From positions 32,498-96,497 of the forward strand of contig JBFMEB010000001.1 of assembly GCA_040753675.1 (NCBI GenBank): a stretch of DNA of 64,000 bases, read 5' to 3'. The translations under genes were made by a program, and so were the position numbers. This DNA is from Candidatus Omnitrophota bacterium (GTDB lineage: Bacteria > Omnitrophota > Gorgyraeia > JAHJTE01). Below, piece after piece: positions 50,890 to 63,283 of the stretch (positions are counted from its first letter, which is position 1; every line of letters begins with the position of its first letter). The notes under the pieces are model-generated. The model was not told the origin of the DNA. It saw only the letters and a list, made by a program, of their open reading frames with translations, and ran no database searches.

Positions 50890-52116
50890 TTATCTACAAT
50901 AAGGAACAATATTCTTTACTGCAAGTAGGACATAACTGATAGGATCGTAAATGTTGAAATTAAAAAACAGGTCTAAAACGTTAACATAGTTTACACAGAA
51001 GATAAATACTGCAGCTAAAATAACAAAATATGACTGATAGTCCTTATTTTTCTGTCTAAATAATTCATATAAAGCTAATGCCGCAAACAGACCTATAACG
51101 AAATCTAAAACTGCAATAAATCGCACAATTTTTGTATATTTCATGCTACTAAATAAAACAAAGATAATGACAAAAGAAACCAAGAAATATGTGACTTTCC
51201 AATCAAATCTCTTTGTAAACAATATATAAAAAAAATAACCTATAAATAAGAGTGTAGCTATTGGATTCAGTATCAGATAATCTATAACGTACTTATACCA
51301 CGGTCCCATCCCAAACAAAGAATAAGTATTCGTCATAGTCACTGGAAAATGAACCCCTGCTATAAATCTAATCAGCGAAACAAGATTATCTAAGCCATTA
51401 AATAAAAACAGGTAGGCACCTCCTACAATAATTAAAGGAGCAACAAACAACCATAGCAAATAAGAATATGATATGTCTTGCTTATATTTGTATCTATATA
51501 ACAGATAAGACAAAACAAAAAATGGCAATAAGGCAATGGCGGATTCTTTAATAGTTATGGTTAAAGAATACACAATTACAAATGTAACAAATTTAGTTTT
51601 TCTTTTATTAACTAAAAAATCAAAGAAAAGCCAAACAGATAGAGCCCAGGATAAATTAACTGTACTATCTTGTAAGCACCTTCTGCCAGAGTACATTATA
51701 ATAGGACTACTGGATAACAACAATGTAGAGATATAAGCTATATCTTGATCAAAAAATTTTTTAATAAAATAAAAGCACACTATAATGAGAAGTATATAAC
51801 AGAGAAATGAAAAATGCGCCAGCGAAACAAAGGTATTTGGAAATATCTTAAACCAAAACGAAGTTATTAAGATATGTCCGAATCTACTGGCGGGGTTAGG
51901 AAATTGTTGTGCAATCTTATCGCTAAGATGATACTCCCACAATAATGGAAATTGGCTAATTCCCTTTTCTTTTATAATCTTTGCATACATGAAATAATGC
52001 CCCTCATCGGCTCTATGGGCAAATTCATTTTCTCGCGGCATGGATAAATAGACTGTAAAAATAGAAAACAAAATAAGAGCTAAAACTACGGTTCGCATTA
52101 TTATGCTCATCTTCAT
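50890..52116 (-). CDS. GT-C fold membrane glycosyltransferase (PMT/ArnT-like, GT39/GT83-like)
   Basis: About 11 TM helices with ADEGHY acidic motif in the first extracytoplasmic loop. Confidence 0.5.
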   Translation of the reverse strand: MKMSIIMRTVVLALILFSIFTVYLSMPRENEFAHRADEGHYFMYAKIIKEKGISQFPLLWEYHLSDKIAQQFPNPASRFGHILITSFWFKIFPNTFVSLAHFSFLCYILLIIVCFYFIKKFFDQDIAYISTLLLSSSPIIMYSGRRCLQDSTVNLSWALSVWLFFDFLVNKRKTKFVTFVIVYSLTITIKESAIALLPFFVLSYLLYRYKYKQDISYSYLLWLFVAPLIIVGGAYLFLFNGLDNLVSLIRFIAGVHFPVTMTNTYSLFGMGPWYKYVIDYLILNPIATLLFIGYFFYILFTKRFDWKVTYFLVSFVIIFVLFSSMKYTKIVRFIAVLDFVIGLFAALALYELFRQKNKDYQSYFVILAAVFIFCVNYVNVLDLFFNFNIYDPISYVLLAVKNIVPYCR

Positions 52117-52159
52117 CTCTCTGATTTAAATTAAAGACTTTATTATAGCAAAAAATAAA

Positions 52160-52195
52160 GCCCACTGCAAACGCAGGCAAAGTTTCTTAATTTTG
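52160..52195 (-). terminator. Weak intrinsic terminator after the flippase gene
   Basis: Minus strand: CUGC-GUUU-GCAG hairpin followed by UUUAUUUUUUGC. Confidence 0.25.
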
Positions 52196-52214
52196 CAAAC
52201 AAAGTACTTATTAA

Positions 52215-60814: not shown

Positions 60815-60821
60815 ATTAAGA

Positions 60822-62147
60822 TTAATATTCTAAGAAAATAATTGGAATTAGGTCTGATTTTGTAAATACAGCATCGAGGCCCAAGGTAGCTGCCCAAAAA
60901 AAGCACAGTGCTAAAAAAAACAAAAGTAAGATTCTGATAAGTCTGCCACGATTAATAAATTGTAAAAAAAACTTTGCACTTAAGATTGATAGCGCTGGCA
61001 TGGCTATTAAAAGATATCTTTCTTCTCTATCTTGCCTTAAAGTTAAGATAAATATAACCAATAAAAACCACATACTTAGAAAAGTTAATTCCCTAATTTT
61101 CTCTGAATCTATTTTTTTAATTATTGCTCTTAAAACTCCCAAATAGCCAAATATAAAAATTGGCATCTGGTAAATTAAAGAAACGAAATATATATACCAG
61201 GGGCGGTTGTAAACTAAGCTCAAAAAACCGACTGGCAGGCTCTTAACCTTATTAGTTATAGGTTCAAATCCCCAATATAAAACTTTTAAGCCTCCTTGGT
61301 TCTTAAGGAACAAGTACAGCCAAGGCATGCTAGTTAAAATAACAGAAATGAGAAATACAATTAGCCTTTTATCAAAAATAATTTTATATTTTTTTTCTTT
61401 AGGTCTTGCCTCTATAAAATGAAGAACGATAACCACTAAAATAAATATTACGCCGCTCATCTTGGACATAATCGAAAGGCCGCTAAGCACACCCGCCAAT
61501 AAAGAATAAATTAGCTTATATTTTCGTATTGAAAGTTCGTAGGAAATAATACTTAAGAGTCCAAAAAGCGACACCAAATCATCAGCCCAAATCTTATGGG
61601 CCGTAAGTAAATCAGTCGGATTAAATATTATCAAAAGACTGGCTAATATACCTAACCTAAAGGAAAACAACATACTACCCAAGACAAAAGTAAATAAGGC
61701 TAACAGCAGGCTGCTCGTAAAAGGTATGATGCAGGCGTAAAATTGGTTTTTGGCTTCTAAGGCATTAACTGTTCGTTTAGCAAGCGCGTAAGGAATATCT
61801 GATTTAAATAAATTATGAGAAATAGCAAGTAAGATACTAAGTAAGGGGGGGTGATGAGAAAATTTACTCGCCTCTGCTCCTTGAAAATCTCGAATCAGCG
61901 AAGCTTTTTCTTCTTTACTTAAAGATATAGATAAAAAACCATTATATTTTTCTTCCTCTATATCTATATAAAAAAGATTATAATGCCCTTGAAAAGTAGT
62001 TAGACCATAAGACTGAATCTTTTTGGCTAAGCTTACATAAATTAATTCATCATTATTAGTATGGCTTAGAGTAAAGGTATGAATTCTTAAGAGTGAGAAA
62101 ATGAGAATTAATGCTAGGCAAGATAAAATCTTATATTTGCGAGACAT
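60822..62147 (-). CDS. GT-C fold membrane glycosyltransferase (PMT/ArnT-like)
   Basis: About 12 TM helices; NNDELIYVSL acidic first-loop motif. Confidence 0.5.
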   Translation of the reverse strand: MSRKYKILSCLALILIFSLLRIHTFTLSHTNNDELIYVSLAKKIQSYGLTTFQGHYNLFYIDIEEEKYNGFLSISLSKEEKASLIRDFQGAEASKFSHHPPLLSILLAISHNLFKSDIPYALAKRTVNALEAKNQFYACIIPFTSSLLLALFTFVLGSMLFSFRLGILASLLIIFNPTDLLTAHKIWADDLVSLFGLLSIISYELSIRKYKLIYSLLAGVLSGLSIMSKMSGVIFILVVIVLHFIEARPKEKKYKIIFDKRLIVFLISVILTSMPWLYLFLKNQGGLKVLYWGFEPITNKVKSLPVGFLSLVYNRPWYIYFVSLIYQMPIFIFGYLGVLRAIIKKIDSEKIRELTFLSMWFLLVIFILTLRQDREERYLLIAMPALSILSAKFFLQFINRGRLIRILLLFFLALCFFWAATLGLDAVFTKSDLIPIIFLEY

Positions 62148-63283
62148 TATTTCTTTCTAATGGTCAATAGGCTTAAGAAGAATGAAGAGAATATGACTTG
62201 TACTCCGATAATCATAAAGGTTATGCCGAATAAAGCCAGTCTTTCCTTATCCAATGCGCCGAAATTAACAGCGATCCATTTAATAATAATACGAATATTC
62301 GCTATCAAGCCAATGCTAAAAATTACTATGCCTAACAATATTCCCTTTTCTAAATTAAAGAAGCGTAAGATAAAAAATAAGGTTTTGTCATTTTTTACAA
62401 ATCCTTCAAAAAACGAATAAGTCTTAGCATAAAGACCTAAACTTAATACCTGGAGTCCCAAAATCGCTGCTAATGCACCTACAGTCATCATATGCATATC
62501 GAAACCGTGTCCGGCAATATAAAAAGGTCCCGGTAATAAAACAATTAAAACTATCACTCCCAGAAAGGCTAATATCAATCCAGGGATTAAAAATAGATAA
62601 GTTGGGCTATATAAAAGCATAAAGCGCATATGTCGCCAAGCATCCTTAATAGGATTAAGCTTAGATTTGCCCTTACGCGGCCAATAAGTAATAGGAATTT
62701 CTTTTATATTTAATTTTTCTCGTAAGGCGCTTACGATCATTTCTGAAGCAAATTCCATTCCTGTAGTATGGAGACTTAATCTTTGATATGCCTCTTTAGT
62801 AATTGCGCGCATGCCACAATGTGCGTCTGAAATCTGCGTATGGAAGAACAATCTTAAGATAAAGGAAAGTATTGGGTTACCTATGTAGCGATTAGTCCAA
62901 GGCATAGCACCGGATAGAATTTTACCTTTAAAGCGCGAGCCGATAACAAAATCATAACCATCTTTCAATTCCTTAACAAATTCTGGAATCTGGCTAATAT
63001 CATAGCTATTATCCATATCAGCCATTACCAAATATTTGCCACGTGCTTCTTGAAACCCTCTTAAATAAGCACTCCCATAGCCACGTCTCAGCTCCTTAAC
63101 CACTCTTGCATCAGTTGACTTAGCAATTTCATAGGAATTATCAGTTGAGCCATTGTCAATTACTATTACCTCTCCGGAAACACCCAGATTTTTTAAAACC
63201 GCAAAGGACTTGTCAATGCATTCTTTAACAGTCTCTGCCTCATTAAGACAAGGAAAAATTATTGATATTTCTATCTGATTCAT
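62147..63283 (-). CDS. GT2 polyprenol-phosphate glycosyltransferase (GtrB/ArnC/DPM1-like) with C-terminal TM anchor
   Basis: ISIIFPCLNEAETV...VIVIDNGSTDNS...ADMDNS; 3-4 C-terminal TM helices. Confidence 0.7.
   Translation of the reverse strand: MNQIEISIIFPCLNEAETVKECIDKSFAVLKNLGVSGEVIVIDNGSTDNSYEIAKSTDARVVKELRRGYGSAYLRGFQEARGKYLVMADMDNSYDISQIPEFVKELKDGYDFVIGSRFKGKILSGAMPWTNRYIGNPILSFILRLFFHTQISDAHCGMRAITKEAYQRLSLHTTGMEFASEMIVSALREKLNIKEIPITYWPRKGKSKLNPIKDAWRHMRFMLLYSPTYLFLIPGLILAFLGVIVLIVLLPGPFYIAGHGFDMHMMTVGALAAILGLQVLSLGLYAKTYSFFEGFVKNDKTLFFILRFFNLEKGILLGIVIFSIGLIANIRIIIKWIAVNFGALDKERLALFGITFMIIGVQVIFSSFFLSLLTIRKK

Follow-up and report, generated by a model that had tools for sequence, protein, structure and literature searches.

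Organization of the glycan island

Omnitrophota are uncultured, ultra-small and probably host-dependent bacteria. In a 64,000-nucleotide stretch of a metagenome-assembled genome of this phylum (contig JBFMEB010000001.1 of assembly GCA_040753675.1, positions 32,498 to 96,497; hereafter the window, whose own numbering is used throughout), a variable surface-glycan island of 24 kb (39135-63283), encoded on the minus strand throughout, lies between the aspartate dehydrogenase gene nadX (63634 onward) and uvrA (36262-39060). Two modules, each pairing a family 2 glycosyltransferase (GT2) with a polytopic glycosyltransferase of the GT-C superfamily, frame a Wzx-type glycan cassette within the island (Table 1). 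The head module consists of a GT2 with four C-terminal transmembrane (TM) segments and GT-C2, and the tail module consists of GT-C1 and a short GT2, followed by a nucleotide-sugar pathway. The short GT2 is coupled to GT-C1, and there are therefore two synthase/GT-C modules. By sequence, both GT2s are classified as polyprenol-phosphate sugar synthases of the DPMS/GtrB/ArnC type. An earlier interpretation made from the DNA alone (the sequence-only reading) covered the upstream two-thirds of the island; it missed the short GT2, the Wzx-like gene, the three genes for B12-binding radical S-adenosylmethionine (SAM) enzymes and the nucleotide-sugar pathway.

The domain identities, topology and fold of the proteins, the coupling of their genes and the conservation of the modules make for a well-supported reading, in which the two modules would act independently, each producing a polyprenol-phosphate-linked monosaccharide at the cytoplasmic face of the membrane and transferring it at the periplasmic face. 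The GT2 of each module would load one sugar from a nucleotide sugar onto polyprenol phosphate. The lipid-linked sugar would then be flipped across the membrane, for which the Wzx-like protein is a candidate. The membrane-only GT-C, with its catalytic D-E motif in the first periplasmic loop, would finally pass the sugar to an acceptor at the outer face of the inner membrane. In the head module, a B12-radical-SAM enzyme resembling HpnJ would remodel the lipid-linked sugar, and in the tail module the collinear pathway downstream would provide a modified GDP-6-deoxyheptose as the source of the donor. Between the modules, cytoplasmic GT2 and family 4 (GT4) glycosyltransferases, methyltransferases and the Wzx-type flippase would build a variable glycan. 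Periplasmic-face glycosyl transfer, as proposed in the sequence-only reading, is implied by the pairing of polyprenol-phosphate sugar synthases with GT-Cs.

Table 1 Features of the glycan island and of the separate TMTC-like locus, with the matches or properties on which each assignment rests (SDR, short-chain dehydrogenase/reductase; TPR, tetratricopeptide repeat; ORF, open reading frame)
Feature	Position	Strand	Basis or property
Small ORF	63365-63604	minus	79 residues, very basic, no TM segment, no Pfam family
Predicted polyprenol-phosphate sugar synthase, GT2 with 4 C-terminal TM segments, DPMS/ArnC/AglJ-like	62147-63283	minus	Pfam, NCBIfam and PDB matches
GT-C2, membrane-only GT-C, D32-E33 after TM1	60822-62147	minus	Pfam PMT, alignment, model
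B12-binding radical SAM, HpnJ-like	59381-60814	minus	TIGR03471 HpnJ, 393.5 bits over full length, cutoff 577.6
GT2	58395-59324	minus	Pfam, NCBIfam
GT4	57276-58394	minus	Pfam, NCBIfam
GT2	56443-57330	minus	Pfam, NCBIfam
SAM methyltransferase	55746-56435	minus	Pfam, NCBIfam
B12-radical-SAM::GT2 fusion, 745 residues	53449-55686	minus	Pfam, NCBIfam; no TM segments
Wzx/AglR-type flippase candidate, ~11 TM segments	52215-53438	minus	Pfam Polysacc_synt, 30.4 bits, gathering score 28.2
GT-C1, membrane-only GT-C, D36-E37 after TM1	50890-52116	minus	Pfam PMT_2, model
Short synthase-type GT2, soluble, no TM segment	50210-50884	minus	224 residues
Nucleotide-sugar pathway block	39135-50204	minus	Pfam, NCBIfam and PDB best matches
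Three SDR epimerase/reductases (GDP-fucose-synthase-like) and TylF-like methyltransferase	within 39135-50204; one SDR at 49218-50204	minus	
Split transketolase	46819-48466	minus	Two overlapping genes, one for the N part and one for the pyrimidine/C part
B12-binding radical SAM	43232-44566	minus	In the pathway block only in this window
3,5-epimerase	42720-43235	minus	C. jejuni GDP-4-keto-heptose 3,5-epimerases, 1e-38
GHMP kinase	41688-42692	minus	PDB heptose phosphate kinases 3k85, 4n3o
Nucleotidyltransferase, HddC-like	40957-41691	minus	
Methyltransferase	between the nucleotidyltransferase and 4,6-dehydratase genes	minus	
4,6-dehydratase	39135-40118	minus	PDB 7us5
TMTC-like GT-C with C-terminal TPRs (separate locus)	15529-17217	minus	Motifs, TPR matches, hhalign

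Head module

The GT2 of the head module is a 378-residue protein with a Pfam Glycos_transf_2 domain (93 bits), a DMD motif and, from hydropathy, four C-terminal TM segments at residues 232-375. Its orthologues have the Pfam domain GT2_TM_C. The best solved relatives are the Pyrococcus Dol-P-Man synthase (5mlz, 1e-19), ArnC (1e-13, residues 5-287) and GtrB (1e-5), and the NCBIfam matches to AglJ (167 bits) and to the Dol-P-hexose transferase (100 bits) are both under the cutoff. The stop codon of its gene overlaps the start of the GT-C2 gene by one base. In loci L001, L003 and L005, orthologues with 54-56% identity lie directly upstream of GT-C2 orthologues.

GT-C2 (441 residues) exceeds the gathering score of the Pfam family PMT (PF02366; 36.6 bits against 22.7). 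Hydropathy predicts about 10 TM segments, of which TM1 (residues 7-25) is followed by N-N-D32-E33 and by a first periplasmic loop that extends to about residue 137. D32, W186-A-D-D189, R314-P-W, E374 and R376 do not vary among 12 homologues, and E33 is nearly invariant. A word-indexed search gave few relatives, all from Omnitrophota, and an exhaustive HMMER search gave 136 cluster representatives at E<=1e-30.

The HpnJ-like enzyme probably remodels the lipid-linked sugar, by analogy with HpnJ, which contracts the ring of glucosamine on a lipid-linked sugar (PMC9204698). A 67% identical orthologue follows GT-C2 in L001 and L005 and is absent in L003. GT-C2 itself is only 35-37% identical to its orthologues. 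GT-C1-like genes also have HpnJ-like genes nearby in L045, a locus of Planctomycetota, and in L058, a deltaproteobacterial one.

Tail module and its nucleotide-sugar pathway

GT-C1 (408 residues, 406 in the NCBI call) matches Pfam PMT_2 with 53 bits against a gathering score of 26.1. TM1 (residues 4-22) is followed by A-D36-E37-G, and D36-E37 is nearly invariant in the family. The AlphaFold model of GT-C1 is confident (pLDDT 91.7, pTM 0.91). The short GT2 gene sits 5 bp downstream of GT-C1. The protein matches the NCBIfam models of AglJ (105 bits) and of the Dol-P-hexose transferase (79 bits, profile positions 3-206 of 213) below their equivalog cutoffs, and its solved relatives include 5mlz (4e-11) and ArnC (4e-5). 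It also adjoins GT-C1 in L009, L012, L014 and L016, where it is 68-83% identical. GT-C1 is 44-62% identical to its orthologues as compared with 66-81% for most of the sugar enzymes. Thus, the GT-C is the least conserved member within each module.

The pathway block encodes a product that is likely a methylated GDP-6-deoxyheptose, the donor precursor of the tail module, as judged from the best matches of its enzymes. The 4,6-dehydratase matches the GDP-D-glycero-D-manno-heptose 4,6-dehydratase of Campylobacter jejuni (7us5) at 4.5e-87 and GDP-mannose dehydratase at 1e-43, and the C. jejuni GDP-4-keto-heptose 3,5-epimerases rank above the dTDP RmlC enzymes for the 3,5-epimerase. The set includes two methyltransferases. 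Sedoheptulose 7-phosphate may come from the split transketolase, which might alternatively introduce a two-carbon branch; neither gmhA nor gmhB was found in the island. GT-C1, the short GT2 and the full pathway occur in this order in at least seven genomes including Velamenicoccus archaeovorus (47-83% identity), and all genes of the block except the SDR gene at 49218-50204 show 66-83% identity. The split transketolase is conserved with the GDP-6-deoxyheptose-type pathway in at least seven genomes.

The capsular GDP-6-deoxyheptose pathways of C. jejuni (HddA/HddC, DdahA-type 4,6-dehydratase, 3,5-epimerases and C4-reductases) thus contain the best solved matches of three island enzymes (dehydratase, epimerase and kinase), and the three GDP-fucose-synthase-like reductases and the O-methyltransferases add to the likeness. 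However, the island pathway includes a split transketolase, to which this window adds a B12-radical-SAM gene. Moreover, the GDP-heptoses of C. jejuni go to cytoplasmic transferases, whereas the island pathway is collinear with a polyprenol-phosphate synthase-type GT2 and a GT-C. The transfer of a 6-deoxyheptose to polyprenol phosphate would, to our knowledge, be a donor type without precedent.

Fold and family membership of the GT-C enzymes

Both GT-Cs are bona fide members of the superfamily, with an acidic motif directly after TM1 and structural similarity to known GT-C enzymes. Foldseek gives a probability of 1.0 for both to STT3, AglB, ArnT, Pmt4, PglB, Emb and ALG9. For GT-C1 the query-normalized TM-score (TMq) is 0.61-0.64 with STT3, 0.60 with ArnT and 0.58 with Pmt4; AglB, PglB and Emb also match, and ALG9 (TMq 0.56) has the lowest root mean square deviation of the structural matches (6.0 A). 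For GT-C2 the matches are AglB/STT3 at the top, Pmt4, ArnT, Pmt1/2 and AftA, with TMq of 0.36-0.50. STT3, ArnT, Pmt4, ALG9 and Emb match both proteins about equally. By profile comparison (hhalign 97%, E 3e-11), the GT-C1 and GT-C2 families are homologous, and their D-E motifs align. The description of these proteins in the sequence-only reading, as polytopic GT-Cs with an acidic first-loop motif, is therefore borne out by D36-E37, D32-E33, the Pfam matches and the fold; so is that of the head GT2 as a polyprenol-phosphate sugar synthase with a C-terminal anchor, by its four TM segments and its relatedness to 5mlz, ArnC and GtrB.

GT-C1 and GT-C2 are membrane-only enzymes, which end about 15-30 residues past the last predicted TM helix. 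No PMT_4TMC or MIR domain was detected in either by Pfam at E<=0.01; nor was a TPR or soluble acceptor-binding domain, or an ArnT-like C-terminal periplasmic domain, found in either protein. Searches of PDB chains, including Pmt1/2 and Pmt4, with phmmer and family profiles gave no match to either at E<=1-10, and hence no solved relative can be used to infer their acceptors. No NCBIfam family matches GT-C1, and GT-C2 matches only archaeal STT3 with 16.5 bits. These fold matches, together with the lack of a PDB sequence match and of an NCBIfam model, place both enzymes in families without a characterized member.

The classification into the families GT39 or GT83, which the sequence-only reading had put forward as a check, is only in part conclusive: PMT (GT-C2) and PMT_2 (GT-C1, its only Pfam match) are above the gathering scores, but the sequences support membership in neither GT39 nor GT83. 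We take PF02366 to include the GT83 ArnT-type enzymes as well, and the PMT and PMT_2 families to span GT39, GT83 and many uncharacterized GT-Cs, so that the PMT match of GT-C2 does not specify GT39. Two other identities, which would have spoken against the sequence-only reading, were also considered. ArnT orthology is rejected for both GT-Cs, as neither an NCBIfam ArnT match nor a PDB sequence match was obtained. A Wzy or WaaL identity is rejected on the Pfam profiles and the structural matches: Wzy_C does not match either protein, the EpsG score of GT-C1 (20.7 bits) falls short of the gathering score of 30.1, and the top 50 Foldseek matches of either protein include no structure of WaaL, Wzy or SEDS.

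Conservation of the modules

GT-C2 loci in three other lineages have, in this order, nadX, the small ORF, the 4-TM GT2 and GT-C2, followed in two of the three by an HpnJ-like radical SAM gene and a GT2. Further downstream, the sets of glycosyltransferase, methyltransferase and radical SAM genes differ, and a Wzx gene is present. The genes at 53449-59324, which encode the cytoplasmic assembly enzymes, are accordingly the variable part of the island, with different content in the orthologous loci L001, L003 and L005.

Relatives of GT-C1 occur in 71 species-level genomes, mostly of Omnitrophota, then of Planctomycetota and Verrucomicrobiota and a few others, all of them diderm, and nearly always adjoin a GT2. 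Neither a Wzx gene nor a cassette was found near GT-C1, the short GT2 and the pathway in Velamenicoccus and L009. The nadX-uvrA site of at least 12 Omnitrophota species contains no cassette, just the small ORF, a short GT2 and a GT-C1-like gene; some of these minimal loci have an additional polytopic PMT_2/TPR gene. Thus, the synthase/GT-C pair is the basal occupant of the nadX-uvrA site, and the window contains an expanded, cassette-bearing version. Loci of the Omnitrophota type, with a 45-46% identical GT-C1 and the full sugar block, were also seen in L015, L017, L022, L023, L025, L029 and others; these GTDB representative genomes are titled 'uncultured Planctomycetia/Planctomycetales bacterium', and the titles are probably taxonomic mislabels.

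Acceptor of the transferred sugars

The favoured acceptor is a lipid-anchored envelope glycan, by analogy with Arn, Rgt, Flm, Gtr and GacL: either the lipid A/core of lipopolysaccharide (LPS) or a flipped undecaprenyl-linked repeat unit or polymer. The overall picture of two modules in a surface-glycan island acting on such an acceptor is adopted tentatively as the leading interpretation, a little short of an even chance. Several features favour it. Both GT-Cs are membrane-only, and membrane-only GT-Cs are typically enzymes with lipid-linked acceptors. As in arn, one operon brings together genes for nucleotide-sugar synthesis, a synthase and a GT-C. The persistence of the GT2 and GT-C1-like pair without a cassette in at least 12 species points to a conserved envelope acceptor. 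The GT-C1 family is confined to diderm phyla and centred on the Planctomycetes-Verrucomicrobia-Chlamydiae (PVC) group. ALG9 is the structural match of GT-C1 with the lowest deviation. Finally, LPS core and O-antigen genes have been reported in the literature on Omnitrophota.

The closest parallels are the Arn system (ArnC with the GT83 enzyme ArnT) and its relatives Francisella FlmF2/FlmK, Bordetella LgmA/LgmB and Rhizobium RgtE/RgtA-D, which glycosylate lipid A or core. Like them, the island combines in one operon the synthesis of an unusual nucleotide sugar, a polyprenol-phosphate-loading GT2 and a PMT/PMT_2-family GT-C with an acidic first-loop motif, in a diderm host, and the best sequence and structural matches of the island proteins include ArnC and ArnT. 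Unlike ArnT, the island GT-Cs show neither sequence orthology to it nor its C-terminal periplasmic domain, and no ArnE/F-type flippase is encoded. The predicted sugar is a 6-deoxyheptose derivative rather than 4-amino-4-deoxyarabinose (Ara4N), galactosamine (GalN) or galacturonic acid (GalA), and the acceptor is one that we infer. The Gtr-type systems (GtrA/GtrB/GtrC; GacI-L, CsbB/YfhO and mycobacterial PpgS/Rv3779) likewise place a synthase-type GT2 and a GT-C, as a monosaccharide transfer unit, in or beside a polysaccharide cluster. The 4-TM GT2 resembles GtrB and DPMS, and the short GT2 resembles PpgS and the DPM1 type. In contrast to Gtr, the island has no GtrA-like small flippase gene, and its GT-Cs come from PVC-specific families. 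Phage- or island-borne Gtr modules are accessory, whereas the pair at the nadX-uvrA site persists in genomes without a cassette.

Several points weigh against this assignment. Pfam and NCBIfam scans detected no initiating phosphoglycosyltransferase, Wzy, WaaL or GtrA/ArnEF-type flippase in the island; for GtrA in particular there was no match, and all minus-strand ORFs of at least 80 residues in 39135-63283 are otherwise assigned. Neither GT-C shows sequence-level orthology to ArnT, Rgt or any solved GT-C, and GT-C2 lies above the Pfam PMT threshold. The AlphaFold (AF2) model of GT-C2 is of low confidence (pLDDT 62.5, pTM 0.68). In L008, two GT-Cs occupy the site without an adjacent GT2. TPR-containing GT-Cs, paralogues of the TMTC-like protein described below, adjoin the GT2 and GT-C1-like pair at L026:11079-12545, L040:11068-12726 and L015:13489-15387, so that the same donor may serve protein glycosylation. 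Lastly, the acceptor, like the identity of the sugar and its flipping, was deduced rather than observed.

Possible protein O-glycosylation

A protein acceptor for GT-C1 and GT-C2 is less likely than a glycolipid. The sequence-only reading took the PMT-like appearance of these enzymes as a sign of protein O-glycosylation, with pilins or surface proteins as targets. In this alternative, GT-C1 and/or GT-C2 would O-glycosylate Ser/Thr residues of pilins, adhesins and giant surface proteins, alone or together with TMTC-like TPR-GT-Cs, in the manner of actinobacterial Ppm1/Pmt, TMTC1-4 or the TfpW-dependent arabinosylation of Pseudomonas pilins. We regard it as unlikely, although it is the most serious competitor of the lipid-acceptor interpretation. 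GT-C2 is over the Pfam PMT threshold and has Pmt4 and Pmt1/2 among its structural matches, and the GT2/GT-C pair is kept in genomes without the glycan cassette. Both GT-Cs resemble PMT (GT39: yeast Pmt1/2/4 and actinobacterial Pmt with Ppm1) and TMTC1-4 in their fold, in the D-E/DD motif and in the predicted use of a polyprenol-phosphate-monosaccharide donor. However, unlike PMT and TMTC enzymes, they have no PMT_4TMC, MIR, TPR or other soluble domain and no sequence match to any solved PMT. The step from a PMT or PMT_2 match to protein O-glycosylation is thus not sustained, since the families are broad, no acceptor domain is present, the fold is generic and the genes lie in a polysaccharide island.

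The best candidate for a protein O-glycosyltransferase in the window is, on its sequence motifs, the product of 15529-17217, which the sequence-only reading had rightly called a TMTC-like GT-C with TPRs. Its motifs FLWDDE, CYRP, SHPIHVEAV and SKESS correspond to all four defining motifs of TMTC O-mannosyltransferases, DD, YRP, HPIHxE and KE[ST] (PMC7801869). Pfam TPR matches lie at residues ~400-545, and hhalign relates the protein to the two GT-C families (92% and 94%, E 7e-7 and 2e-7), placing its DD opposite their DE. It shares its architecture, motifs and TPRs with TMTC1-4, but Pfam differs: residues 1-400 match no Pfam GT-C domain even at E<=1, including TMTC_DUF1736, for which the sequence-only reading had suggested a profile check, and a paralogue in L026 reaches 16.9 bits, under the gathering score of 27. 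The gene starts at the ATG at 17217, in agreement with the 562-residue NCBI protein, as a longer ORF from a TTG codon (15529-17307) would overlap tRNA-Ala(CGC) at 17230-17303 on the same strand. The great expansion of this family in Omnitrophota adds to the case for protein O-glycosylation, as does the adjacency of its paralogues to the GT2 and GT-C1-like pair in three other genomes. The family comprises more than 2000 clusters at 90% identity, mostly from Omnitrophota, with several paralogues on single contigs. We know of no characterized bacterial TMTC-like enzyme.

The pilin-specific version of this alternative is weak. At least seven ORFs with the N_methyl motif (6877-7806 and 18122-23201) lie near PilB, PilC, PilQ and PilM/N, so the large pilin repertoire noted earlier is real and speaks for a protein acceptor, but it is not unusual, being normal for the phylum (PMC10066038). 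GT-C1 and GT-C2 lie 28-38 kb from the pilin genes. The Ser/Thr-rich patches sought in the pilins are modest, with at most 8 of 20 residues. No O-oligosaccharyltransferase, GT-C or other glycosyltransferase was found inside the pilin clusters, and in a neighbourhood comparison the closest relatives of the TPR-GT-C were not consistently adjacent to pilin genes. No linkage to pilins was found. Known pilin glycosyltransferases adjoin pilA, which counts further against pilins as acceptors.

In a broader version, the GT-Cs of the minimal nadX-uvrA loci and the expanded TPR-GT-Cs would together form a phylum-wide system of periplasmic protein O-glycosylation. Its donors would be unusual sugars linked to polyprenol phosphate, namely the methylated 6-deoxyheptose and the sugar remodelled on the lipid by the HpnJ-like enzyme. 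This version is considered improbable, more so than the glycosylation of proteins by the two GT-Cs as such.

En bloc transfer and polymerization as alternatives

An alternative modelled on archaeal Agl pathways would use a monophosphate-linked primer for en bloc transfer. The 4-TM GT2 would make a polyprenol-phosphate-hexose primer, which the cytoplasmic GT2, GT4 and methyltransferases would extend; a Wzx/AglR-like protein would flip the polyprenol-phosphate-oligosaccharide, and GT-C2 would move the whole glycan to a protein or lipid. The last sugar, a 6-deoxyheptose, would then be added outside by the tail module, much like the action of AglD/AglS of Haloferax. The island has a Wzx-like flippase and four cytoplasmic glycosyltransferase domains and yet no phosphoglycosyltransferase, Wzy or WaaL, and thus an Agl-like pathway is conceivable. 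Its gene inventory runs parallel to that of Haloferax volcanii (AglJ, AglG/I/E, AglP, AglR, AglB and AglD/AglS), in that it comprises AglJ-like and further GT2s, a methyltransferase, a Wzx-like flippase, a GT-C and, for the possible addition of a terminal sugar on the outer side of the membrane, a second synthase/GT-C pair. Both synthase-type GT2s have AglJ as their top NCBIfam match, AglG-type matches are seen for other GT2s, and AglB and STT3 are the top Foldseek matches of GT-C2. However, the similarities are at the superfamily level, the Agl matches are all far under the family cutoffs (167 against 325 bits), and the host is bacterial. GT-C2 has neither the large periplasmic domain of STT3-type oligosaccharyltransferases nor a WWDxG-type motif, and Foldseek barely separates STT3, ArnT and PMT, with a weak model of GT-C2. 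In addition, initiating transferases are often encoded outside glycan clusters, and the minimal loci consist of the GT2 and GT-C pair alone, which fits monosaccharide transfer. The en bloc pathway is very unlikely.

It is hardly credible that the GT-Cs are the missing polymerase or ligase of the Wzx-dependent cassette, as functional analogues of Wzy or WaaL: the island has neither, GT-C1 lies 98 bp downstream of the Wzx-like gene, and its weak EpsG match (E 2.6e-4) covers most of the profile, but that match is under the gathering score compared with 53 bits for PMT_2, the top 50 structural matches are free of WaaL, Wzy and SEDS, both GT-Cs keep a close, conserved linkage to a synthase-type GT2, and GT-C1, the short GT2 and the pathway occur without Wzx or a cassette in Velamenicoccus and L009.

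Neighbouring genes and other features

The small ORF consists of two 31-residue repeats, KVAKVGIKRxxGYLYxVDKxGDVSMAKMxRG. It is always located between nadX and the GT2/GT-C genes and shows 76-90% identity across Omnitrophota, compared with 64-77% for UvrA in shared loci. A role as a GtrA-like flippase is rejected, because the protein is basic, repeat-containing and without a TM segment; it is probably unrelated to glycosylation. The nadX ORF listed at 63634-63909 on the minus strand encodes only 91 residues and matches the C-terminal third of the family alone. There is therefore an in-frame stop between 63910 and the end of the window, which implies a frameshift, a pseudogene or an assembly error. 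The genes on the 3' side of uvrA encode a large TPR protein, ExbB/ExbD and the machinery for type IV pilus assembly.

The G+C content is 0.32-0.35 in the glycan island (50001-60000) and 0.40-0.42 in the pilus and housekeeping stretches (18001-28000). A low value is as expected for exchangeable surface-glycan cassettes, but the signal is weak because the 28-34 kb stretch is equally low.

Significance

The pairing of a polyprenol-phosphate sugar synthase with a GT-C is a well-known type of system. The two GT-C families described here are uncharacterized and largely confined to the PVC group, and a literature search gave no prior description of these modules in papers on Omnitrophota. Neither a match to PMT or PMT_2 nor the label 'glycosyltransferase family 39 protein' is grounds for annotating protein O-mannosylation. 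At this locus, two conserved modules for lipid-linked sugars frame a hypervariable glycan island whose chromosomal site is fixed. If the predicted donor is right, the set of polyprenol-phosphate sugars would be extended to 6-deoxyheptoses, and B12-radical-SAM chemistry would be tied to lipid-linked sugars beyond hopanoid biosynthesis. If the phylum-wide system of protein O-glycosylation were true, it would parallel eukaryotic TMTC O-mannosylation in bacteria and might decorate pili and the giant surface proteins that serve in attachment to the host; with polyprenol-phosphate-heptose, it would use a class of glycosyl donor not described before.

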